Made by a program: the position numbers and the translations under genes. Shown in pieces: positions 28,706 through 40,709 of a stretch of DNA of 64,000 bases (positions within the stretch are counted from its first letter, which is position 1; every line of letters begins with the position of its first letter). The notes under the pieces are model-generated. The model was not told the origin of the DNA, made no database searches, and was given only the letters and a program-made list of their open reading frames with translations. The stretch is from Metapseudomonas otitidis (GTDB lineage Bacteria; Pseudomonadota; Gammaproteobacteria; Pseudomonadales; Pseudomonadaceae): NCBI RefSeq assembly GCF_900111835.1, contig NZ_FOJP01000010.1, positions 205,397 through 269,396 of the forward strand, given 5' to 3'.

Positions 28706-28882
28706 GGTCGTCCGGGAGGGCAGTGGAAAAGGTCGCGCTAGCCTAGACGATCCCTTCGCCCCTGGCAGCCACCGGCGTAACGCGAACCCCGTCGCGCCCC
28801 GGGACATCCGTGCTGTCCCTGGCTGGCATCGGCAGGTCTAATCGGCTCGGGAATCGGTGGTGTGAATCGGTGCGCGACTATT

Positions 28883-28910
28883 ACATGTGAGCTATTGCGG
28901 GCTCACATGT
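28883..28910. promoter_or_regulatory. Perfect 10-N8-10 palindrome ACATGTGAGC-tattgcgg-GCTCACATGT in the divergent intergenic region upstream of the PspA/flotillin/ATPase cluster
   Basis: Exact inverted repeat; it sits in the 226-bp divergent region between the CoA-transferase (start 28705) and the first cluster gene (28932). Confidence 0.4.
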
Positions 28911-28931
28911 GATGGTCTAGGCTCCGACCCC

Positions 28932-29549
28932 ATGCAGAAATCATCCGCCCACTACCAGCGACTCTTCCGCCAGCGCCTGCGTGACCAGGGGCTGGTCAAG
29001 AAAGAGGTCTGGATCCTCCCCGAGAACGCCCGCGCGCTGCTCGCGGTGGAGCGGACGCTGCGCCAGCCCCAGCCGGGGCCGGTTCACCTGGAACAGGAGA
29101 ATGCGATGGAGATGCCGCAGATCTGGAACGCCCGCGCGCTGTGCGACGCCCTGGCCGCCACCGAGCTGTTCCGCCAGGGCGAGGCCCAGGTGGAGCTGAT
29201 CGAAGGCGCCGAGCCGAGCCTGCTGGTGACCATGCGCGAGTTCGGCGACCTGCCCCTGTTCCTCGCCGTGCACGGCGAGCAGATCCTCGTCGAGGCACTG
29301 CTCTGGCCCCAGTCCGAAGTCCGCGACGTGGCGCGCTTCAACGAAGAAATCCTGCTCAGCCGCCAGCTCTTTCCGCTCTCCAGCATCGGCCTGGAGACGC
29401 GTCCCGGCGGCGAGCGTTGCTACATCATGTTCGGCGCCTTGAGCGCCCGTTCGATCCTGTCCAACGTGGTGTTCGAGATCGAGACCCTGGCCAGCAACGT
29501 CATCCGCGCCACGGAAGCCTACGAAGGCTACCTGGCGCCCCAGGCCTGA
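28932..29549 (+). CDS. DUF2170 (YjfI-like) family protein
   Basis: Immediately precedes a PspA/IM30 homolog, as in the E. coli yjfI-yjfJ pair; start chosen at MQKSSAHYQ to avoid the palindrome. Confidence 0.55.
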   Translation: MQKSSAHYQRLFRQRLRDQGLVKKEVWILPENARALLAVERTLRQPQPGPVHLEQENAMEMPQIWNARALCDALAATELFRQGEAQVELIEGAEPSLLVTMREFGDLPLFLAVHGEQILVEALLWPQSEVRDVARFNEEILLSRQLFPLSSIGLETRPGGERCYIMFGALSARSILSNVVFEIETLASNVIRATEAYEGYLAPQA

Positions 29550-29563
29550 CCCCGGAGAAACCC

Positions 29564-30250
29564 ATGAACGTATGGAGCAAGCTGATCGACGCCCTGCGTG
29601 GCGGCCTCGGCGAAGCCGGCGACGCCCTGGTGGACAGCCAGGCCCTGCGCATCCTCGACCAGGAGATCCGCGACGCCGACCAGGCCCTGCGCCAGGCCCG
29701 CGAAGCCCTGGCCGGCGTCATGGCCCGGCAGAAGCTCGCCGACGAGCGCGCCGCCCAGTGCCAGGCCAAGGTCGACGAATACGAAGGCTATGCCCTCAAG
29801 GCCCTGGAAAGCGGCAACGAGGCCCTGGCCCGTGAAGTGGCGGAGAAGATCGCCGAGCTGGAAGCGCAGCACCGGAGCGAGCGCGGCCAGGCCGAAGGCT
29901 TCAGCGCCCAGGTCGCCCAGCTGCGCAAGGCCGTGACCCAGGCCGAGGCCAACATCCGCCACCTCAAGCAACAGGTGGACACGGTCAAGGCCACCGAAAG
30001 CGTGCAGCGTGCCCAGCAGGCCGTGGCCCAGCGCCAGGGCGATACCCACAGCCGCCTGGGCACCGCCCTGGACTCGCTGGAGCGCCTCAAGCGCCAGCAG
30101 GCCGAGCGTGCCGCGCGGCTGGAGGCGGCCGACGAACTGGCCAGTGCCGAGCGTGGCGACGACCTGGAAGCGCGCCTGCGGGCCGCCGGCATCGCCACCG
30201 GGCCCAGCAGCGCCGACAGCGTCCTGGCGAGGCTGCGGGACAAACGCTGA
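29564..30250 (+). CDS. PspA/IM30 family protein (YjfJ-like)
   Basis: 228-aa all-coiled-coil protein with PspA/IM30 heptad pattern. Confidence 0.85.
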   Translation: MNVWSKLIDALRGGLGEAGDALVDSQALRILDQEIRDADQALRQAREALAGVMARQKLADERAAQCQAKVDEYEGYALKALESGNEALAREVAEKIAELEAQHRSERGQAEGFSAQVAQLRKAVTQAEANIRHLKQQVDTVKATESVQRAQQAVAQRQGDTHSRLGTALDSLERLKRQQAERAARLEAADELASAERGDDLEARLRAAGIATGPSSADSVLARLRDKR

Positions 30251-30297
30251 CAAACCCGACCGCGGCCCCGCCCGCCCTGTTTCAAGGACTGGAAACG

Positions 30298-30939
30298 ATG
30301 GACCTCTTCCTGATCACCGCCCTCTCGTTCCCCACCGTGGTGTTCAGCTTCCTGCTGCTCATCGCGGTCATCTACTGGACCGTGGTCGCCTTCGGTCTGC
30401 TGGAGGTGGACCTGCTGGATGTCGAGGCCGACTCCCTGCTCGAAGGCCACGGCAACGCCGAAGGCCTCGCCGGCCTGCTGTCCAAGCTCAAGCTCAACGG
30501 CGTGCCGGTCACCTTGGTGCTGACCCTGCTGTTCTTCTTCGGCTGGTTCATCAGCTACTTCGTCGAACTCTGGCTGCTCGGCCAATTGCCCCTCGGCTGG
30601 CTGCGCTACCCGCTCGGCCTGGTGGTGATGATCGGCGCCCTGGTGCTGGCCGTGCCCATCGCCTCCACCCTGTGCCGCCCCCTGCGCCCGCTGTTCCTCA
30701 AGGCCGAGGCCACCAGCACCCGCAGCGTCATCGGCCAGACGGCCGTGGTGCGCAGTGGCCGCGTCACCGCCGGGCAGGGCGAAGCCGTGCTGGAGGACGG
30801 TGGCGCCGGGCTGATCCTCAAGGTCCGTGCCGACGAAGCCCTCGGGCTCAAGCGCGGCGACCGCGTCGTGTTACTGGAATACCTGGAGGCGCAGCACGCC
30901 TATCGGGTCATCACCGAGGACGAATTCCGCGGGCTCTGA
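30298..30939 (+). CDS. NfeD-like / YqiJ-like membrane protein with C-terminal OB-fold domain
   Basis: Four TM segments then a soluble beta-rich C-terminus (VVRSGRVTAGQGEAVLEDGGAGLILKVRAD...GDRVVLLEY); precedes flotillin. Confidence 0.7.
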   Translation: MDLFLITALSFPTVVFSFLLLIAVIYWTVVAFGLLEVDLLDVEADSLLEGHGNAEGLAGLLSKLKLNGVPVTLVLTLLFFFGWFISYFVELWLLGQLPLGWLRYPLGLVVMIGALVLAVPIASTLCRPLRPLFLKAEATSTRSVIGQTAVVRSGRVTAGQGEAVLEDGGAGLILKVRADEALGLKRGDRVVLLEYLEAQHAYRVITEDEFRGL

Positions 30940-30976
30940 CCCCGGTGTGCCTCAGCATCAAAGGAGAATGATTGCA

Positions 30977-33025
30977 ATGAACCTAGCCTCGCTGCTGCCC
31001 ATCCTGATCGGCGTCGGTCTCGTCGTCCTCGTGGTCGTCGGGCTCCTGGCCCTGTTCAAGGCCTTCTACATCAAGGTCCCGCAGGGCACCGCACTGATCG
31101 TCAACGACATGTCCTCCACCCCCAAGGTGCACTTCACCGGCGCCCTGGTGTACCCGGTCATCCACCTCAAGGAGTTCATGCGCATCTCGCTGATCACCCT
31201 GGAAGTGGACCGCCGTGGCAAGGACGGCCTCATCTGCCGTGACAACATGCGCGCCGACATCACCGTCGCCTTCTACCTGCGCGTCAACGAAACCCAGCAG
31301 GACGTGCTCAAGGTGGCCAAGGCCATCGGCGTCGACCGCGCCTCCGACCGGGGCGCGGTGAACGAACTGTTCAACGCCAAGTTCTCCGAAGCGCTGAAGA
31401 CCGTCGGCAAGCAGTTCGACTTCGTCGAACTGTTCGAGAACCGCCAGGACTTCCGCGACCGCATCATCGAAGTGATCGGCAACGACCTGAACGGCTACGT
31501 GCTGGAAGACGTCGCCATCGACTACCTGGAACAGACCGCCAAGCACTCCCTCGACCCGAGCAACATCCTCGACGCCGAAGGCATCCGCAAGATCACCGAA
31601 CTGACCGCCAACCAGAACGTCATCACCAACGAGCTGGAGCGCAACCAGGAACTGGCGATCCAGAAGAAGAACGTCGAGACCCGCGAAGCCGCTCTGGCTC
31701 TCGAACGCCAGCAGGCCGACGCCGAGGCCCGGCAGAAGCGCGAGATCGAGACCATCCGCGCCCGCGAGGAAGCCGAGACCGCCAAGGTCAAGGAAGAGGA
31801 ACGCCTCAAGGCCGAGCAGGCGCGCATCCAGGCGCAGCAGGAGATCGACATCCGCGTCGAGAACCACCAGCGCGAAGTGGAAGTGGCCCAGCAGAACCGC
31901 CAGCGCGCCGTGGTCATCGAAGTGGAGAAGGTCACCCGCGCCAAGGACCTGGAAGTGGTCGCCCGCGAGCGCGAAGTCGAGCTGCAGCGCATCGAGAAGG
32001 AAAAGGCGCTGGAAGAACAGCGCAAGAACATCGCCAACGTGATCCGCGAGCGCGTCGCCGTCGAGAAGACCGTCGCCCAGGAAGAAGAGCGCATCAAGGA
32101 AGTGCGTGAAGTCTCCGAAGCCGAGCGCGCCAAACAGGTCATCGTCCTCCAGGCACAGGCCGAAGCCGAGCAGGAGCTGGTGCGCCAGGTCAAGCAGGCC
32201 GAAGCCGACGAGACCCGCTCCAAGCACAAGGCCGTCGAGATCAACAACCTCGCCCAGGCCGAACTGGAAGCCGCCGCCAAGCAGGCCGAAGCCAAGAAAC
32301 GCATGGCCGAAGGCATCGAGGCCGAGCGCGCCGCCCCCGGCCTGGCCGATGCCCGCGTTCTGGAAGCGACCGCCACCGCGAAGGAGAAGGACGGCCTCGC
32401 CGACGCCCGCGTGCGCGCTGAACAGCTGATCGCCGAAGCCCGTGGCGAGCAGGAGAAGGGCCTCGCCGAAGCCCGCATCCTCGAAGCCCAGGCCGCCGCT
32501 AAGGAGAAGGACGGTCTCGCCGAAGCCAAGGTGCTGGAAGAGAAGCTCGGCGCTCAGGCCCGAGGCGAAGAACAGCTCGGCGCCGCCAAGGCCAAGGCCA
32601 CCAAGGACCTGGGTTCGGCGGAAGCGGAAATCCTCCTGCAGCGCCTCAACGCCGAGGCCGAAGGCCTGGGCAAGAAGTTCAGCGCCCTCGACGCCCTCAG
32701 CGACAGCGCCCGCCAGCACGAAGAGTTCCGCATGCAGCTGGAGAAGAGCTTCGAGGAAGCCATGGCCGCCATCGCCGCCAACAAGGACATCGCCAAGGAC
32801 CAGGCCGAGGTGCTCGCCACCGCCCTGGGCAAGGCGAAGATCGAGATCGTCGGCGGCGAAGGCGACTTCTTCAATTCCTTCGCCAAGTCGCTCTCCGTCG
32901 GCAAGGCCATCGAAGGCGTGGTGGGCAAGAGCCCCGTGGTGCAGGACGTGCTCGCCCGCCTGCTCAACGGCCGCACCCCGGCCGTCGCGCCCAAGGCTGA
33001 CGCCGCCCCGGCTGCCGAAGCCTGA
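30977..33025 (+). CDS. flotillin (SPFH/band-7) family protein, YqiK-like
   Basis: N-terminal TM, SPFH domain, long EA-rich coiled-coil with repeated AEAR/AKEKDGLAEA units. Confidence 0.9.
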   Translation: MNLASLLPILIGVGLVVLVVVGLLALFKAFYIKVPQGTALIVNDMSSTPKVHFTGALVYPVIHLKEFMRISLITLEVDRRGKDGLICRDNMRADITVAFYLRVNETQQDVLKVAKAIGVDRASDRGAVNELFNAKFSEALKTVGKQFDFVELFENRQDFRDRIIEVIGNDLNGYVLEDVAIDYLEQTAKHSLDPSNILDAEGIRKITELTANQNVITNELERNQELAIQKKNVETREAALALERQQADAEARQKREIETIRAREEAETAKVKEEERLKAEQARIQAQQEIDIRVENHQREVEVAQQNRQRAVVIEVEKVTRAKDLEVVAREREVELQRIEKEKALEEQRKNIANVIRERVAVEKTVAQEEERIKEVREVSEAERAKQVIVLQAQAEAEQELVRQVKQAEADETRSKHKAVEINNLAQAELEAAAKQAEAKKRMAEGIEAERAAPGLADARVLEATATAKEKDGLADARVRAEQLIAEARGEQEKGLAEARILEAQAAAKEKDGLAEAKVLEEKLGAQARGEEQLGAAKAKATKDLGSAEAEILLQRLNAEAEGLGKKFSALDALSDSARQHEEFRMQLEKSFEEAMAAIAANKDIAKDQAEVLATALGKAKIEIVGGEGDFFNSFAKSLSVGKAIEGVVGKSPVVQDVLARLLNGRTPAVAPKADAAPAAEA

Positions 33026-33036
33026 TCGAGCGGGCC

Positions 33037-33059
33037 CCGGAACCCCCGGGGCCCGACGC
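33037..33059 (+). other. Perfect 9-bp stem hairpin (gggccccgg-aaccc-ccggggccc) in the flotillin/small-ORF gap
   Basis: Exact inverted repeat 12 bp after the flotillin stop, no T-run; possible intra-operon attenuator or RNA-processing site. Confidence 0.35.
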
Positions 33060-33127
33060 CGCGCACAGGGTCCGCCCCGCCTTGCGAAAGGGGCCGGGCC
33101 CGCCTACCCGCCAAGAGGAACCCCGCC

Positions 33128-33367
33128 ATGGCCGAATCCCGTGACTACCTGGAGCTGTCCTTCCGCTCCATCCACTGCTTCGCCAACGACGGCCGCCTGG
33201 ACGTGCACGAACTGGCCGCCCTGCTGGCCATCGCCGAGCGCGACGGCGTCATCGACGACAACGAGAAGCGCGTGCTGAAGAAGATCCTCGCCCACGTCAG
33301 GCCCGAGGAAATCGACCCCGCCCTGCGCGAGCAGATGGCCGAAGTCGCCCGCAAGATCGGCGCCTGA
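33128..33367 (+). CDS. 79-aa hypothetical protein (TerB-like helical fold?)
   Basis: Small acidic protein between the flotillin and the giant ATPase; DGRLDVHELAALLAIAERDGVIDDNEKRVLKKI resembles TerB-type motifs. Confidence 0.45.
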   Translation: MAESRDYLELSFRSIHCFANDGRLDVHELAALLAIAERDGVIDDNEKRVLKKILAHVRPEEIDPALREQMAEVARKIGA

Positions 33368-33450
33368 GCCCAGGCCCCGCGCCCCCGCGTACCCGGCCCC
33401 TCCGCCCGAGGGGCCCTGTTCGCAGACCCAGCAGATTCAGGAAGAACACG

Positions 33451-36400
33451 ATGTCGGACGTCACCGCCGCAACCCCCGCACAGGATGTATTGGACAAGGC
33501 CGTCGCCGAAGGCGGCGCCTACGAGGTGCTGCACAAGCGCCTGCAGGACCAGGGGCAGCGCCTGCGGCAGACCACCGACAGCCTCAACCAGCGGCGCCTC
33601 GAAGCCTTCGGCGACAGCCGTATGGACGTGGTCGGCCGGGTGCGCATCCGCACCGAGAACAACTGCATCGCCCGCGACATCGTCCAGGTCGGCGACTGCC
33701 TGCTGTTCGGTTACAACGTCTTCATCGGCCTGAGGAAGGAAACCGGCATCGCCGACGTCTTCTCCCTCTACCGCCTGGTGGAAGGGGAGGAGGGCTATGA
33801 GGCCGAGCCGGTGCCGCTGGAAGGCACCTTCCTCGCCGCCCAGGGCTTCCTCAACGACTTCAACGAGCTCTACACCTACTACAAGAACACCCGCCTGCTG
33901 CAGCTGGCCATCCGCGACGGCAAGCTGCTGGCGAGCTTCCAGATCGGCGAGCGCATCACCGACATCCGCGTGTTCCGCTGGTCCCTCTCCAGCGACGGGC
34001 GCGAGGTGCGCTACATCGACAACCGCGGCGAGCGCGACATCGCCCTGCCGTCGCCCTTCGACTTCGAATGGAAGAAGGCCACCCGCGAGATGGTGGTCCA
34101 GGGCCGCCACCCGCACCTGAACATCCTCGACACCGTGTTCGTCGAGACCATCGGCGGCGACCTCACCATCAAGGTGGAGAACAACACCGAGGACGGCCTC
34201 GGCATCTACCGCGAAGAGGTGGTGGACAAGACCCAGTCCCTCGACGACGCCCAGATCGAATTCGCCCGCCTCGGCAGCCTGGTGCTGCTCAAGGTGCTGC
34301 CCTACCGCGAGGAGCAGTGGCGCTACCTGGTCTACAACAGCCTGACCCGCCAGGTGGAGCGCATCGACGCCATCGGCCAGGCCTGCGTCCAGCTGCCCGA
34401 GGACCACGGCATCATCTTCCCCGGCGGCTGCTACCTGCAGAACGGCGAATACAAGACCTTCGACGCCTCCATGGCCGGCATGCGCTTCAAGCGCAGCGTG
34501 CGCTCGCCCAACGGCGAAGACGTGCAGTACATCTTCTACCACCCCGAGGAGGGCCGTTCGGTCCTGCTCACCTACAACCTCATCAGCCGCCAGCTGCAGA
34601 ACCCGCTGTTCGGCCACGGCTACGCGCGCCTGGAAGACGGGCGCATGGTGATCTTCGCCGCCGAGGGCGACGAGCCGACCCGCATCCACCCCATGCAGAT
34701 CTGGCAGACCCCGTTCTTCACCGAGGAGTACGCCGCCCGCCAGCCGGCCCGCAGCGGCTTCTTCGGGCGCATCGGCAACGCCGAGCTGGTGCGCGGCGTC
34801 TCCGACCTGTACGGCCTGTGCCGCGAGATCGAAACCCCCTCCGTCTCGGTGCAGCGCTACACCCAGCTGTGCCAGGGCACCCGCCGCCTGTTCGACGTCT
34901 ACCACTGGCTCGGCAGCGACGAGCTCGACGGGCTCGCCCCGCTGCTGCGGGAAGTGGCCGCCACCGCCGAACGGGTGCTGGACGAATACGAGAAGGTCGA
35001 GAGCATCCGCCGCCAGTCCGACCAGGCCATGGCCGGCGCCGAAGCGCAGCAGAAGGCCCTGCTCGGGCGCCTCCAGGCCGCCGGCTGGGAACAGGCCCAG
35101 GACTACGTTGACGCCCTCAACGGCATCACTGCCCAGCGTGGCCTGCTGCTGACCATCCGTGACTACCGCTACATCGACGTCGCCCGCATCGACGCCATGG
35201 AAACCGAGCTGCAGGAGGCCCAGGCGCGCACCGCGGCCGCCACCGCCACCTTCCTCGCCAGCGACCAGGCCCTGCAGCCCTTCGTCACCCGCCTGGAGAC
35301 GCTGGACGCCGACGCGCAGAAGGCCGAGACCGTCGCCCTCCTGGCACCGCCGCTGGAGGCCTTGCAGGCCATGGCCGGCGACCTGGACATGCTGTCCAAC
35401 CTGATGGGCTCGCTGCAGATCGACGACGCCACCCAGCGCACCCGCATCATCGAGTCCATCTCCGAGATCTACGCCCGCCTCAACCAGGCCAAGGCCCGCG
35501 CCGAGCAGCGCCGCAAGGCCCTCGGCTCCACCGAATCGGTGGCCCAGTTCGGCGCCCAGTTCAAGCTGTTCGGCCAGGGCATCGTCAACGCCCTGGCCCA
35601 GGCCCAGGACCCCGAGCGCTGCGACGAGCAGCTGTCGCGCCTGCTGGTGCAGCTGGAGGAACTGGAGAGCCGCTTCGGCGATCACGAGCAGTTCCTCGGC
35701 GACATCCTCAGCAAGCGCGAGGAGCTGCTGGAAACCTTCGAGGCCCACAAGCAATCCCTGCTCGACGAGCGCCAGCGCAAGGCCCAGGGCCTGCAGGACG
35801 CCGCCCGGCGCATCCTCGACAGCCTCGGCCGACGTACCGCCAAGTTCACCCAGGCCGAGGAGCTCAACGCCTTCTTCGCCGCTGACCCGCTGATCCTCAA
35901 GCTGCGCGAACTGGCCCAGCGCCTGCGCGAGCTCAACGACAGCGTCAAGGCCGACGACGTCGAAGCCCGCCTCAAGGGCGCCCGCGACCAGGCCGTGCGC
36001 GCCCTGCGCGACAAGAGCGAACTGTTCGAAGCCGGCGGCAACGTCATCAAGCTCGGCCCGCGCCACCGCTTCAGCGTCAACACCCAGGAGCTGGACCTGA
36101 CCCTGCTGCCCCGGGGCGACGGGCTCTACCTGCACCTCACCGGCACCGACTTCCTCGAACCCCTGCACGACCCCGAGCTGGACGCCCTCAAGGCCTACTG
36201 GCAGGTGGCGCTGGAGTCCGAGTCCGAGCGCCTCTACCGCGCCGAATACCTGGCCGGGGAAGTCCTCGACGCCGCCGACGGCCAGCGTGAAGGCCTCAGC
36301 CTGGACGGCCTCAAGGCCCTGCTGGCGCAGCCCGAGGAACTGGCCCGGGTGGTGCGCGACTTCGCCGCCCCGCGCTACCGCGACGGCTACGAGAAGGGCA

Positions 36401-38694
36401 TCCACGACCACGACGCCGCCGCCATCCTCCAGCACCTGCTGCCCCTGCGCGAAAGCGCCGGGCTGCTGTGCTTCGGCGCCGTGCCCCGGGCCTTCGCCAC
36501 GCTGTTCTGGGACGCCGCCCGGCAGGGCGAGAGCGGCACCGCCTGGCCGGAACGCGCCCGCACCAGCCGGCACATCCAGCAGCTGTTCGGCCGCGCCGAC
36601 GGCCTGCTGGCGCTGCAGGCCGAAGTGACCGACGCCCTGCAGGCCTTCCTCGCCGAGCACCCGCTGCCCCTGCAGCCGGGCCAGGTCGCCGAGGCCGCCG
36701 AGTACCTGGTGCAGGAACTGGCCGCCGAGCGCATCGAATTCACCTTCAGCAAGTACGCCCGCCAGCTGCACGAAGGGCTCAAGCTGCGCCTGCAAGGCGC
36801 GCGCATGTGGGACGACTACCAGGCCGCCGTGGGCCGCCTGGAGGGGCGCCCGGCGGCCCAGTGGGCGCTGGTCGGGCACTGGCTCGACGGCCTCTGCGGC
36901 GAAGAGGGCTTCGCCGGCCTCGCCGATTACCGGGCCGAAGCCGTGGCCCTGGCGCTGCTGCGTGCCGACTTCCCGCAGCGCTTCACCGAAGTGGACCTGC
37001 GCTTCAGCGTCAGCGGCCTGATGGGCGAGCACCCGCGCATCCAGGACCACAGCCTGGCACTGGCAGTGGACGACTTCTTCGGCCGCCTGCGCGAACACCG
37101 CGAGCAGGTGCTGCCCGGCCTGCGCCAGTACCAGGCGCTGCGCCAGGCCCTGGTCGCCCGCCAGCGCGAGGCCCTGCGCCTGGCCGAGTTCAAGCCGCGC
37201 CCGCTGACCTCCTTCGTGCGCAACAAACTGATCAACGACGTCTACCTCGGCATCATCGGCGACAACCTGGCCAAGCAGATGGGCACCGTCGGCGAGAACA
37301 AGCGCACCGACCTCATGGGCCTGCTGATGCTCATCTCGCCCCCCGGCTACGGCAAGACCACCCTGATGGAGTACGTCGCCCACCGCCTCGGCCTGATCTT
37401 CATGAAGATCAACGGCCCGGCCCTGGGCCACGAGGTGCGCTCGCTGGACCCGGCCCAGGCGCCCGACGCCACCTCGCGCCAGGAGCTGGAGAAGCTCAAC
37501 CTGGCCCTGGAGATGGGCAACAACGTGATGCTCTACGTCGACGACATCCAGCACACCCACCCGGAGTTCCTGCAGAAGTTCATCTCCCTCTGCGACGGCA
37601 CCCGGCGCATCGAGGGCGTGTGGAAGGGCCGCACCAAGACCTACGACATGCGTGGCAAGAAGTTCTGCGTGGTGATGTCCGGCAACCCCTACACCGAGTC
37701 CGGCGATGTGTTCCGCATCCCCGACATGCTCGCCAACCGCGCCGACATCTATAACCTCGGCGACACCCTGGGCGGCATGCAGGACGCCTTCGCCCTCAGC
37801 TACATCGAGAACGCCCTGACCTCCAACCCGGTGCTGGCGCCCCTGGCCACCCGCGACATGGCCGACGTCTACCGCTTCGTCGACCGTGCCGAGGGCAAGC
37901 CCTTCTCCGCCAACGAACTGGGCCACAGCTACAGCGGCGCCGAGATCAACGAGATCACCACCACCCTGCAACGCCTCATGCAGGTGCGCGACGTGGTGCT
38001 CAAGGTCAACCAGCAGTACATCGCCAGTGCCGCCCAGGCCGACCAGTACCGCACCGAGCCGCCGTTCAAGCTGCAGGGCAGCTACCGCAACATGAACAAG
38101 ATGGCGGAGAAGATCTCCGCCGTGATGAACGACGCCGAGCTGATGCAACTGCTGGCCGACCACTACCAGGGCGAGTCCCAGCTGCTCACCACCGGCGCCG
38201 AGGAGAACCTGCTCAAGCTCGCCGAACTGCGTGGCAACCAGAGCGCCGAGCAGGCGGAGCGCTGGACCCAGATCAAGCGCGACTTCATGCGCAACAAATC
38301 CATGGGCGGCAGCGACAGCGACGTCGGCACCCGCGTGGTGGCCCAGCTCAACGACCTGGTGGAGAGCGTGCGCGGGCTGGCCCGCAGCGAAGCCCCCGCA
38401 CCGGCCGCCGCCGAGGTGCCGTGGGAGGCCCTGCTGCAACGCCTGGAGGCGCTGGTGCAACCGCCCGCCGCGTTCAAGGTGGACGTCACCGCCCCGGCCC
38501 AGGAGGGCGTGCGCGAAGTCCTGCTGAGCCTGGCCGACTGCCTGGAGAACAGCTTCATGCCGCTGATCCGCATCATGGACAAGAAGATCGACGTCGACCT
38601 GCGCACCCATCACCGCATCACCGACATCGCCAATCGCCTCAACGAGCTGGGTGGCGCCCTGCCGGCGCCCGGCACCGACGGCACGCCCACCTGA
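33451..38694 (+). CDS. 1747-aa multidomain protein with P-loop NTPase (AAA-like) module in its C-terminal third
   Basis: Walker A LISPPGYGKTTLMEY (about residue 1300), Walker B NVMLYVDDIQHT (about residue 1365); about 1250 aa of N-terminal beta-rich and coiled-coil regions with no assignable family. Confidence 0.8.
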   Translation: MSDVTAATPAQDVLDKAVAEGGAYEVLHKRLQDQGQRLRQTTDSLNQRRLEAFGDSRMDVVGRVRIRTENNCIARDIVQVGDCLLFGYNVFIGLRKETGIADVFSLYRLVEGEEGYEAEPVPLEGTFLAAQGFLNDFNELYTYYKNTRLLQLAIRDGKLLASFQIGERITDIRVFRWSLSSDGREVRYIDNRGERDIALPSPFDFEWKKATREMVVQGRHPHLNILDTVFVETIGGDLTIKVENNTEDGLGIYREEVVDKTQSLDDAQIEFARLGSLVLLKVLPYREEQWRYLVYNSLTRQVERIDAIGQACVQLPEDHGIIFPGGCYLQNGEYKTFDASMAGMRFKRSVRSPNGEDVQYIFYHPEEGRSVLLTYNLISRQLQNPLFGHGYARLEDGRMVIFAAEGDEPTRIHPMQIWQTPFFTEEYAARQPARSGFFGRIGNAELVRGVSDLYGLCREIETPSVSVQRYTQLCQGTRRLFDVYHWLGSDELDGLAPLLREVAATAERVLDEYEKVESIRRQSDQAMAGAEAQQKALLGRLQAAGWEQAQDYVDALNGITAQRGLLLTIRDYRYIDVARIDAMETELQEAQARTAAATATFLASDQALQPFVTRLETLDADAQKAETVALLAPPLEALQAMAGDLDMLSNLMGSLQIDDATQRTRIIESISEIYARLNQAKARAEQRRKALGSTESVAQFGAQFKLFGQGIVNALAQAQDPERCDEQLSRLLVQLEELESRFGDHEQFLGDILSKREELLETFEAHKQSLLDERQRKAQGLQDAARRILDSLGRRTAKFTQAEELNAFFAADPLILKLRELAQRLRELNDSVKADDVEARLKGARDQAVRALRDKSELFEAGGNVIKLGPRHRFSVNTQELDLTLLPRGDGLYLHLTGTDFLEPLHDPELDALKAYWQVALESESERLYRAEYLAGEVLDAADGQREGLSLDGLKALLAQPEELARVVRDFAAPRYRDGYEKGIHDHDAAAILQHLLPLRESAGLLCFGAVPRAFATLFWDAARQGESGTAWPERARTSRHIQQLFGRADGLLALQAEVTDALQAFLAEHPLPLQPGQVAEAAEYLVQELAAERIEFTFSKYARQLHEGLKLRLQGARMWDDYQAAVGRLEGRPAAQWALVGHWLDGLCGEEGFAGLADYRAEAVALALLRADFPQRFTEVDLRFSVSGLMGEHPRIQDHSLALAVDDFFGRLREHREQVLPGLRQYQALRQALVARQREALRLAEFKPRPLTSFVRNKLINDVYLGIIGDNLAKQMGTVGENKRTDLMGLLMLISPPGYGKTTLMEYVAHRLGLIFMKINGPALGHEVRSLDPAQAPDATSRQELEKLNLALEMGNNVMLYVDDIQHTHPEFLQKFISLCDGTRRIEGVWKGRTKTYDMRGKKFCVVMSGNPYTESGDVFRIPDMLANRADIYNLGDTLGGMQDAFALSYIENALTSNPVLAPLATRDMADVYRFVDRAEGKPFSANELGHSYSGAEINEITTTLQRLMQVRDVVLKVNQQYIASAAQADQYRTEPPFKLQGSYRNMNKMAEKISAVMNDAELMQLLADHYQGESQLLTTGAEENLLKLAELRGNQSAEQAERWTQIKRDFMRNKSMGGSDSDVGTRVVAQLNDLVESVRGLARSEAPAPAAAEVPWEALLQRLEALVQPPAAFKVDVTAPAQEGVREVLLSLADCLENSFMPLIRIMDKKIDVDLRTHHRITDIANRLNELGGALPAPGTDGTPT

Positions 38695-38707
38695 CCCGGA
38701 GGTCGCC

Positions 38708-39397
38708 ATGGATTTCGCAGGACTCGACCAGCAGCTGCGCGACAGCCTGCAGGACCTGAAGCTGAGCAACGAGGAGCGCGACGAGCTGCGCGAACTGGGC
38801 AGCGAGCTGGGCCCGGACCAGGTGCGCTACCTGCGCAACCGCGCCTTCGACCTGGTGCGCGAGCTGTGCCAGGCCGACCCGGCCAACCTGCAACCGGCGC
38901 TCAAGTGGCTGGAGCAGGTGGTGCGCACCCTCGACCTTGCCGGCGCCGTCGCCCCGGCCGTGGCCAGCGCCCACTTCAGCCCCGGCGAGGAGTGCCGGCG
39001 CAAGATCCGCGAGCTGTGCCGCCAGGCCCGGCACAGCGTGGACATCTGCGTCTACACCATCTCCGACGACCAGCTCAGCAGCGAGATCCTCGCCTGCCAC
39101 GGGCGCGGCATCCGTGTGCGGGTGATCAGCGACAACGAGAAACAGCACGACGAGGGCAGCGACATCCAGGCCCTGCGCCACGCCGGAGTCGATGTGCGCA
39201 TCGACGACAGCCCCTTCCACATGCACCACAAGTTCGCCCTGTTCGACGGCCGCCTGCTGCTCAACGGCAGTTTCAACTGGACCCGCAGCGCCAGCACCAG
39301 CAACGAGGAGAACCTCCTGGTGATCGACAACGCCCACCTGGTGGCGCGCTACCTGGCGGAGTTCGACAGCCTCTGGGGGCGCTACGCCCCACGCTGA
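38708..39397 (+). CDS. phospholipase D-family (single HKD) nuclease, Nuc-like
   Basis: HKD motif HMHHKFALFDGRLLLNGSFNWTRSA; starts 13 bp after the giant ATPase. Confidence 0.85.
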   Translation: MDFAGLDQQLRDSLQDLKLSNEERDELRELGSELGPDQVRYLRNRAFDLVRELCQADPANLQPALKWLEQVVRTLDLAGAVAPAVASAHFSPGEECRRKIRELCRQARHSVDICVYTISDDQLSSEILACHGRGIRVRVISDNEKQHDEGSDIQALRHAGVDVRIDDSPFHMHHKFALFDGRLLLNGSFNWTRSASTSNEENLLVIDNAHLVARYLAEFDSLWGRYAPR

Positions 39398-39524: not shown

Positions 39525-40709
39525 GTGCAGATGGACCTTCACATCCCCACCCTGGTGCTGGTGGACGTCTACATCCTCGCCCTGCTCGGCATCCTCGCCG
39601 GGCGGGCCTGGCGTCGCGGCACCCCGGAGCCGACCCTCGGCTACCTGAGCCTGACCCTGCTGCTCGGCGCCTTCTGCACCGTGCTCGGCAGCCTGCGCGG
39701 CCTGGGCATGGACTGGGTGCCGATCATCATCGGCAACGTTCTGCTGCAGCTCAGCTGCGCCGCCAGCTGGACCTCCATGCGGGTGTTCGCCGGCCGGCCC
39801 GTTCATCTCGCCGGCTTCCTCGCCGGGCCGCTGCTGTGGTTGGCGCTCTGCGCCGTGCCGGCGTTCTACGCCTCGCTGCCGGCGCGGATCATGCTCAGCT
39901 GCGTGCTGATGATCACCTACACCGCCCTCGCGGCCTTCGAGCTGTGGCGCGCCCGGCGCAGCCTGCAGGTGTCCATCGCCCCGGCCATGGCGCTGCACCT
40001 CATGCACGTGGCGACCTACGGCGTGCGCCTGGCGCTGGACCGGGGCGAGCCGTTCCAGCGGCTGGTCAACGGCCAGGCCAGCCCCTTCTTCGCGATGCTG
40101 GTGTTCGAGACGCTGCTGTACGCCATCGGCGTCGCCTTCGTCACCCTGGCCATGGTCCGTGAGCGGGCCGAGCTGCAGTACAAGCACGCCGCCTACAGCG
40201 ACCCGCTGACCGGTGTCGGCAACCGCCGTGCCTTCATGGATTCCGGCCAGGCCCTGCTGGAGCGCTGCGCACGGCGCGGGGAGGGCGTGGTGCTGCTGCT
40301 CTGCGACCTGGACAACTTCAAGCGCCTCAACGACTCCTACGGCCACGCCAGCGGCGACGCCGCCCTGGTGGACTTCACCCGTATCGTCGCCGCGCGCATG
40401 CGTCGGCACGACGTGTTCGGGCGCATCGGTGGGGAAGAGTTCGCCTGCCTGCTGGCCGATGCCGACGGCGCCACCGCCGTGCTGGTGGCCGAGCGCATCC
40501 GCCGCGAGTTCGCCGAGAGCTGCCCCGAGGCACCGGGGCCGCTCAGCGTCAGCATCGGCGTGGCCGGCAGTGGCGAGGCGGGGTACGACCTGTCGCGGTT
40601 GCTGTCCCTGGCGGACAAGGCCCTGTACCGGGCCAAGGCCCAGGGGCGCAACCGCGTGGAGTGCTACCGCGAGGCCCCGGCCGAGCCCAGCGGCGAGTCG
40701 GCGGCCTGA
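39525..40709 (+). CDS. diguanylate cyclase (GGDEF) with N-terminal membrane sensor domain
   Basis: Seven TM segments then GGEEF (RIGGEEFACLL) and RxxD I-site. Confidence 0.85.
   Translation: MQMDLHIPTLVLVDVYILALLGILAGRAWRRGTPEPTLGYLSLTLLLGAFCTVLGSLRGLGMDWVPIIIGNVLLQLSCAASWTSMRVFAGRPVHLAGFLAGPLLWLALCAVPAFYASLPARIMLSCVLMITYTALAAFELWRARRSLQVSIAPAMALHLMHVATYGVRLALDRGEPFQRLVNGQASPFFAMLVFETLLYAIGVAFVTLAMVRERAELQYKHAAYSDPLTGVGNRRAFMDSGQALLERCARRGEGVVLLLCDLDNFKRLNDSYGHASGDAALVDFTRIVAARMRRHDVFGRIGGEEFACLLADADGATAVLVAERIRREFAESCPEAPGPLSVSIGVAGSGEAGYDLSRLLSLADKALYRAKAQGRNRVECYREAPAEPSGESAA

Follow-up and report, generated by a model that had tools for sequence, protein, structure and literature searches.

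Which partners does a giant ATPase serve when it is encoded between membrane-scaffold proteins and a phospholipase D (PLD)-family enzyme? The question is raised by a cluster of seven + strand genes in a 64-kb stretch of Metapseudomonas otitidis DNA (contig NZ_FOJP01000010.1, positions 205,397 to 269,396), which we refer to as the window. All coordinates below are positions in the window, and genes g1 to g7 are bacA, bacB, bacC, bacD, g5, bacE and bacF. The cluster is the orthologue of the published Pseudomonas aeruginosa bacABCDEF operon, a PspA-flotillin envelope-stress operon, with one small TerB-like gene in addition. The explanation that we favor, and regard as probable rather than firm, is that of a bac-type envelope-stress operon in which BacA would repress its own synthesis, a flotillin, an NfeD-like protein and the ATPase would form the core, and the accessory proteins would differ among lineages.

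Identity of the cluster and published background

The seven open reading frames are separated by intergenic gaps of 14, 47, 37, 102, 83 and 13 bp; the reading frame coordinates thus confirmed the layout given in the initial annotation. A Shine-Dalgarno sequence was found upstream of six of the seven genes, bacA being the one without, and a terminator scan found no + strand terminator-like site inside the cluster. Protein-level conservation in other genomes was seen for 7/7 genes, placing them far from chance reading frames. The short gaps and the result of the terminator scan are consistent with a single transcript; co-transcription by reverse transcription PCR (RT-PCR) is known from strain PA14 only.

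The identification rests on the match of bacA to an equivalog model and on the high identity of the other products to orthologues that lie in the same order in the P. aeruginosa clade. Gene bacA (28932–29549, + strand, 205 aa) matched the NF050185 BacA equivalog over its full length (343.8 bits, cut-off 300) and DUF2170 with an E-value of 1.3e-50. When the products of bacA to bacF were compared by tblastn with the Pseudomonas paraeruginosa locus (L007), identities were 70, 67, 73, 92, 83 and 75%, in a gene order that was the same except for the absence of g5; the ATPase and the PLD were 83% and 75% identical to the P. aeruginosa proteins. The locus adjoins yaeQ-recJ in a synteny conserved across Pseudomonas species, with recJ 4 kb downstream of the cluster, and is not a variable island. 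The window and P. aeruginosa are alike in genes, order, strand, equivalog match and downstream yaeQ-recJ; two genes set the window apart, the 79-aa TerB-like gene inserted between bacD and bacE, and a GGDEF gene that follows bacF. The earlier assignment of the first four genes to the bac cluster was borne out by the same evidence. Its domain labels were also correct: Pfam and NCBIfam scans returned DUF2170, PspA_IM30, DUF3686/AAA and PLDc_2, with weak support for the labels of g3 and g4.

In P. aeruginosa the operon corresponds to PA3732-PA3727, or PA14_16140-16200 (Mace 2008, Wallart 2024). RT-PCR in PA14 linked every junction from bacA to PA14_16200, showing a single transcript (Wallart et al. 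2024, PMC10948618). PA14_16190 is bacE and PA14_16200 is bacF; both were co-transcribed with bacA-D and co-derepressed in a bacA mutant, in which BacB-F over-accumulated 6- to 13-fold (PMC10948618). A survey across bacteria described a neighborhood of CesT/Tir-PspA, band-7/flotillin, a novel AAA+ ATPase with a beta-propeller, and YqiJ/YuaF, to which a PLD is occasionally added in some Proteobacteria (Ravi et al. 2024, PMC11237479). PA3731 is up on osmotic shock (PMC2587700), and the PA14 bacD orthologue has been named PaFlo3 and classed as SPFH (PMC13086221). In P. aeruginosa, biofilm, swarming and virulence are all influenced by the operon. The downstream partners of the first four genes, whose role the initial annotation left open, were already in the literature: bacE and bacF appear there through RT-PCR, co-derepression and the survey of Ravi et al. 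The cluster and its architecture are already published. To this the present analysis adds frequencies, the variability of the slot that follows the ATPase, the small TerB-like gene, the affinity of BacF to PLD6, and an operator hypothesis for BacA. The survey (PMC11237479) gives no frequencies, regulator or operator, and leaves unmentioned the TerB-like gene and the rhomboid and TelA genes after the ATPase, all of which are quantified below.

Co-occurrence and architecture of the giant ATPase and its membrane partners

A genome scan with g6 yielded 80 loci at 54% identity or more, drawn from gamma- and beta-proteobacteria, Longimicrobium and Candidatus Adiutrix, and the cluster genes in them were counted by tblastn with g1-g7. 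Results showed that an NfeD-like gene and a flotillin gene lay directly upstream of the ATPase gene on the same strand in 68 of 68 loci, the NfeD-like gene always directly upstream of the flotillin gene. BacA was present in 50 and PspA in 49 of these 68 loci. A PLD gene lay downstream of the ATPase in 28 of 70, and was far commoner in loci with BacA/B (27/47) than in those without (1/17). The pairing of flotillin and ATPase was kept even in Vibrio and in a metagenome contig, where identity was down to about 30%. The idea that the ATPase and the PLD are co-conserved with the flotillin module thus held for the ATPase, an invariant partner, and failed for the PLD, an optional one. The best-supported reading is that NfeD-like protein, flotillin and AAA+ ATPase are the invariant core, PspA and BacA a regulatory and repair arm, and the accessories vary by lineage. 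This places the ATPase with flotillin and NfeD, not with PLD or DNA repair, and so redirects what to test.

The same counts bear on a reading in which BacE would be the Vps4-like disassembly ATPase of an ESCRT-III-type PspA polymer formed by BacB, with flotillin and NfeD only marking the site. Gene bacB (29564–30250, + strand, 228 aa) encodes a PspA/IM30 protein of the ESCRT-III superfamily (PspA_IM30, 6.6e-50, 170 bits, residues 2-226). PspA/IM30 proteins are ESCRT-III homologues, ATP-dependent remodelling has been proposed for PspA-AAA+ pairs (PMC11237479), and BacB and BacE are co-transcribed and co-regulated (PMC10948618). However, the flotillin-NfeD-ATPase triad occurred without an adjacent pspA in 19 of 68 loci and the ATPase without flotillin in none, and over the stretch examined no PspA_IM30 gene was found in the distant Vibrio and metagenome loci. 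BacE might nevertheless act on a PspA whose gene lies elsewhere in the genome. Since it is flotillin and not PspA that the ATPase follows, this reading is the weaker one and we judge it unlikely. The cluster does resemble ESCRT-III/Vps4 and the E. coli pspFABCDE and yjfIJKLMC systems in having a PspA-family protein with a controlling partner, stress and phage inducibility, and the YjfI-YjfJ dyad, but it lacks PspF, PspB and PspC.

The two genes upstream of the ATPase in every locus encode membrane proteins that family models recognize weakly. Gene bacC (30298–30939, + strand, 213 aa) encodes a YqiJ/short-NfeD-like membrane protein with about four hydrophobic segments by hydropathy and a soluble C-terminal domain; YqiJ_N matched 7 of 31 family members (best E 0.0018) and NfeD 2 of 31 (E 0.31), all weakly. 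The product of bacD (30977–33025, + strand, 682 aa) is probably a divergent SPFH/flotillin protein, in which an N-terminal transmembrane segment is followed by a long coiled coil rich in E, A and K. Flot matched 4 of 31 members of its family and Band_7 one of 31, while NCBIfam FloT matched g4 itself weakly (E 0.004). The best PDB match of BacD was flotillin-1 at a non-significant E of 0.57, and PDB searches with profiles of this family and of the NfeD-like one returned nothing significant. Weak as the profile matches are here, the two labels are in line with what has been published on the P. aeruginosa orthologues.

Gene bacE (33451–38694, + strand) encodes the giant AAA+ ATPase of 1747 aa (DUF3686 at 1.6e-206, DUF7902, AAA_5/AAA). 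Its layout comprises an N-terminal helix (23-53), a beta-propeller (59-420, DUF3686), a helical and coiled-coil region (425-860, with DUF7902 at 606-689), a small beta domain (882-905), a helical region (930-1157), an AAA+ core (about 1280-1450) and a helical C-terminal region. The Walker motifs noticed initially near residues 1300 and 1365 proved intact rather than degenerate and conform to GxxxxGK[ST] and hhhhD[DE]: GYGKTT lies at 1299-1304 and VMLYVDD at 1359-1365 (37345–37545, + strand, from Walker A through Walker B), and the Walker residues were invariant in 60 homologues. An AlphaFold2 model of residues 1-1160 (pLDDT 80) contained the helix, the beta-propeller, about 430 residues of long helices, the small beta domain and the helical domain; the C-terminal part has a putative AAA+ fold. 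Structure prediction of the giant protein thus revealed its propeller and helical layout, and the fold search that went with it yielded generic propellers. Foldseek with the N-terminal model matched propeller or propeller-plus-solenoid proteins (nucleoporin, intraflagellar transport complex IFT-A, clathrin) at TM scores of at most 0.13, and a protocoatomer relationship is not claimed. No transmembrane segment was found in BacE, and PDB sequence and profile searches gave only short P-loop matches to RuvB and p97, leaving no solved relative by sequence. Clustered at 50%, the DUF3686 family has 747 representatives; among the longer proteins listed, most have 1500-1900 aa, and nearly all carry the domain at the N-terminus.

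If the database label of g6 were taken at face value, the protein would act in DNA repair as an ATPase of the SMC/SbcC or RuvB type. The label is 'ATPase involved in DNA repair' in the Pfam entry for DUF3686, a wording also used for PA14_16190 in the literature (PMC8855297), and 'DNA repair ATPase' at NCBI; there are also weak RuvB P-loop matches, and recJ is close by. Yet the RuvB matches covered only about 45 residues around the P-loop (E 1e-3 to 1e-2), the SMC-like match to LmuB was confined to the coiled-coil region 507-886, a literature search for DUF3686 found no paper mentioning the family, and the gene context was membrane stress in every locus examined. We give this reading very little credence, and the label seems to be an artefact that arose from the coiled coil.

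The slot after the ATPase varied among loci. It held a rhomboid gene in 22 loci, TelA in 18, a protein of 230-258 aa without known function in 14 and a zinc-ribbon protein in 6, with an MscS-like protein and an M90 peptidase in one locus each. The rhomboid (L008-L013, L015-L018, L021, L025, L079 and others) is an intramembrane protease of about 185 aa; in the majority of the 22 loci its start codon and the stop codon of the ATPase share bases (ATGA). In loci that also have a PLD, the rhomboid separates it from the ATPase. The window and the P. aeruginosa clade are without the rhomboid gene. Stenotrophomonas/Lysobacter-type loci carry the 230-258-aa protein and TelA (toxic anion resistance) after the ATPase, not a PLD (L026-L029, L033-L040, L047, L050, L061, L062, L071, L072, L081 and L087). 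On the megaplasmid pQBR103 (L085, NC_009444.1, 84437-97641) the order is YjfI-PspA-rhomboid-DUF2491-DUF350-DUF1190-GspS-NfeD-SPFH-ATPase, which includes yjfKLMC-type polyamine genes and comes with the same operator motifs as those described below. The YjfI-PspA dyad, the rhomboid, yjfKLMC-type genes and the NfeD-SPFH-ATPase triad are thus combined in one operon on a megaplasmid, which makes the module a mobile one. In Vibrio chagasii (L086, 3022-8891), where identity is about 30%, RNA-ligase, HD/KTI12/AAA_33 kinase-like and R2K ATP-grasp genes lie immediately upstream of the triad, with hipBA, TelA and NAD-salvage genes close by; in that lineage the module may have some connection with RNA repair or with a defence island. 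Overall, the partners after the ATPase all point to the membrane, and to nucleic acid only through the PLD and this one Vibrio locus.

BacA, its putative operator and the proposed mechanism

We then considered how the operon might be controlled. Two copies of an operator-like palindrome with the consensus TYACATGTRA lie on the + strand upstream of bacA, TTACATGTGA at 28881–28890 and, 22 bp from it, TCACATGTGA at 28903–28912. These were the only two matches of a motif scan of the 64-kb window, against 0.05 expected. A sigma-70-like promoter was inferred from the sequence at 28895–28923 (+ strand), with TTGCGG at 28895-28900, a 17-nt spacer and TAGGCT at 28918-28923, although a scan for the strict promoter consensus did not call it. 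The palindromes bracket the -35-like element, and the -10-like TAGGCT ends 8 nt before the bacA ATG. Because of this spacing and the lack of a Shine-Dalgarno sequence, the bacA leader may be very short or absent and the mRNA leaderless or nearly so. The arrangement recurs in related loci, where TTGAca lies between the palindromes and is followed by TAGtcT. The palindrome pair was found upstream of bacA in nearly all bacA+ loci and on pQBR103, with a spacing of mostly 21-24 bp and with TTTCATGTAA as a variant in some lineages; it was missing from every locus without bacA, and in related loci it occurred almost only upstream of bacA.

A sigma-54 promoter was considered and rejected. Between -300 and +260 bp relative to the bacA start codon, scanned in four Pseudomonas loci as well as the window, the best GG-N10-GC element scored 7-8 of 11 and its position was not conserved. 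Thus the window differs from the P. aeruginosa reports in having a palindrome pair with a sigma-70-like promoter and no credible sigma-54 site. It differs also in the protein: BacA has 205 aa here, whereas the published work describes a 16-kDa, 139-residue form and sought an RpoN site 'upstream' of that shorter gene. The region searched was probably the coding segment for the BacA N-terminus, and both published studies appear to have used a truncated bacA gene model together with the sigma-54 hypothesis.

BacA consists of a basic MazE-like N-terminal domain (about 3-48) and a DUF2170 domain of the CesT/Tir-like type (65-201). The N-terminal segment (residues 1-49, 28932-29078), which includes SSAHYQRxxRxRLRxQGLVKKEVWILPE, was more conserved than the DUF2170 domain across about 50 loci, and diversity at the three codon positions of its coding stretch (0.30/0.18/0.57) followed the pattern of coding sequence. 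This extension, which falls outside the 137-position Pfam DUF2170 model, is a further difference from the E. coli pspFABCDE and yjfIJKLMC systems. PF11455, a MazE-like antitoxin family, was the one Pfam model that matched the segment repeatedly; it was the best or only match for 6 of 9 BacA N-terminal sequences (E 0.0013-0.1), each time below threshold, and tblastn of the N-terminus against plasmids recovered only other YjfI proteins. The N-terminus is most likely an overlooked DNA-binding domain that binds a defined operator pair. We infer that BacA is an operator-binding autorepressor rather than under the published sigma-54 control, because the palindromes co-occur strictly with bacA, and this fits the derepression seen in the bacA mutant.

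From these elements a mechanism can be proposed. BacA would repress its own operon, its MazE-like N-terminus sitting on the two palindromes that flank the -35 of the sigma-70-type promoter, while its CesT-like domain would bind the PspA homologue BacB. When BacB engages damaged membrane, repression would be relieved by partner switching, and PspA would repair or remodel the bilayer. The linkage of bacC, bacD and bacE genes was observed directly; their products would form a membrane-microdomain machine, to which BacE would dock by its beta-propeller and helical arms, using ATP to assemble, disassemble or empty the flotillin scaffold. That BacE may remodel or empty this scaffold is suggested by gene linkage and by analogy with HflK/C-FtsH and SLP2-PARL-YME1L. 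In common with those systems, the module encodes an SPFH protein and an AAA+ ATPase, joined in 22 related loci by a rhomboid, all of them membrane associated. The analogy is one of organization and not of ATPase homology, for BacE is without protease domain or transmembrane segment and has a beta-propeller. The TerB-like protein, rhomboid, TelA and PLD6-like BacF would plug into the core as lineage-specific accessories, and BacF, at the membrane surface, would cut nucleic acid or hydrolyze cardiolipin without being the point of the system.

Several observations weigh against this account. The closest characterized relatives of BacF, namely Zucchini/MitoPLD, Nuc and NucT, are nucleases in vitro. 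Pfam gave no above-threshold match for g3 or g4 of the window, the Walker B motif of BacE reads DD and not DE, and a physical association of BacE with BacC or BacD would be deduced from gene linkage. The 80 loci were the best-scoring ones, almost all proteobacterial, and are not phylogenetically independent. PF11455 scored at most 19.1 bits on the BacA N-termini against a cut-off of 22, and the window copy gave no match. A sigma-54 promoter for bacA has been proposed in two papers (PMC10948618 among them), and deletion of paFlo3 (bacD) in PA14 reduced biofilm by about 20% and had no other phenotype (PMC13086221).

The PLD-family enzyme, the TerB-like gene and neighboring features

Gene bacF (38708–39397, + strand, 229 aa) encodes a single-HKD PLD of the Nuc/Zucchini (PLD6) type (PLDc_2, 1.2e-29, 103 bits against a cut-off of 27). 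Its HKD motif, HMHHKFALFDGRLLLNGSFN at residues 171-190, is intact, as first supposed, and matches HxK(x)4D(x)6GSxN in the form HHKFALFDGRLLLNGSFN. The closest solved relatives were human and mouse PLD6 (9lkx_K, 2.2e-30; 4ggj, 2.1e-28; 39% identity over 139 aa), followed by Nuc (1byr, 4.5e-11) and NucT. BacF is like MitoPLD/Zucchini and Nuc/NucT in its single HKD motif and presumed homodimer; unlike MitoPLD it is without an N-terminal transmembrane anchor, since no hydrophobic segment was found, and has instead a conserved helical N-terminal domain (residues 1-90, 38708-38980) that is possibly TerB-like. The role of MitoPLD as a cardiolipin hydrolase is debated, and it is possible that BacF is biochemically a nuclease. 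In this cluster, a bacterial enzyme closely related to human PLD6 is found in the setting of membrane remodelling.

The initial annotation had proposed a membrane-anchored machine for nucleic-acid processing, defence or DNA repair, and this proposal is not supported. In its defence form, the ATPase and the PLD nuclease would be anchored to the flotillin/PspA scaffold and would counter phage or incoming DNA, for instance through destruction of nucleic acid on membrane breach. Several observations speak for such a system. PA3728-PA3732 rose in all phage-infected samples of one study with two lytic phages (PMC12041424), and bacE is in the RsmA regulon alongside type VI secretion system genes. The cluster is patchily distributed and present on megaplasmids, in one Vibrio locus the triad is beside RNA-ligase/kinase-like genes and hipA, and BacF falls in the Nuc/Zucchini clade with sub-threshold matches to the defence nucleases DrmC, MkoB/C and DpdK. 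However, induction by phage is classical behavior of Psp systems and counts against the defence reading, which depends on one dispensable component: the PLD is missing in 42 of 70 loci, while the ATPase was never found without flotillin and the NfeD-like gene. Where other genes occupy that slot, they encode membrane proteins or proteases and no nucleases. No PADLOC model matched g1 or g3-g5, and g2 and the ATPase gave only coiled-coil matches to SMC-like models, that of the ATPase being to LmuB (3.8e-5) in the segment given above. BacF reached 35 bits for DrmC_I against a cut-off of 133 and 24 bits for DpdK against 100, and the synteny with yaeQ-recJ across Pseudomonas species is not that of a hypervariable island. 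The likeness to DISARM DrmC, Mokosh and Dpd is that of a PLD-family enzyme beside a large ATPase, but the scores are far under the family cut-offs, the genes that go with the PLD in those systems are missing, and here the PLD is dispensable for the core. We consider a defence role improbable.

A related idea makes BacF the bacterial MitoPLD/Zucchini counterpart, an effector triggered by membrane damage that would act with a flotillin cage, a PspA polymer and the giant AAA+ motor. Nucleic acid entering or leaking at the breach would be destroyed, giving defence against phage or foreign DNA, or else phosphatidic acid made from cardiolipin would drive resealing of the membrane. We see this as a long shot; if true, either outcome would offer a tractable bacterial model for the disputed question of lipid versus nuclease activity of PLD6. 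In the envelope-stress reading that we prefer, BacF would be an accessory.

The additional gene of the window, g5 (33128–33367, + strand), encodes a small acidic TerB-like protein of 79 aa with two DGxxDxxE..L repeats and is preceded by a good Shine-Dalgarno sequence, AAGAGGAA. The TerB model matched 12 of 23 members of the g5 family (best E 5.8e-5), the window copy falling below the cut-off (E 0.021), and EF-hand models matched too. The gene was conserved in 24 loci and absent from the P. aeruginosa clade. It sat in the bacD-bacE gap, ahead of bacA, in one locus between the genes for PspA and the NfeD-like protein, or past the ATPase gene. Residues 2-40 of BacF resemble the g5 repeat (hhalign, 62% probability, E 7.5e-5), with D..LSxxExxELR in both, and this repeat may be a common docking module of the BacF N-terminus and the TerB-like protein.

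Three further features were noted within or beside the cluster. A perfect 10-bp G+C hairpin without a T tract, GGGCCCCGG-AACCC-CCGGGGCCC, lies just past the bacD stop codon (33031-33055); the region was dropped as a structured element, as it folded no better than shuffled sequence (z = -0.77). A gene for a membrane-bound GGDEF diguanylate cyclase (39531-40709) lies on the bacF strand after a gap of 133 bp in which no terminator-like site was found. It was not retained as an operon member: an orthologue lay beside the cluster in one other locus only, that of P. linyingensis (L014), directly after the ATPase. Lastly, the ribosome-binding region of bacE (33436-33450, TTCAGGAAGAACACG) has GGA within its Shine-Dalgarno sequence. 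The PA14 orthologue, PA14_16190, was among the genes most changed in an rsmA mutant, being strongly up; with these two observations together, direct binding of RsmA at this site is conceivable.

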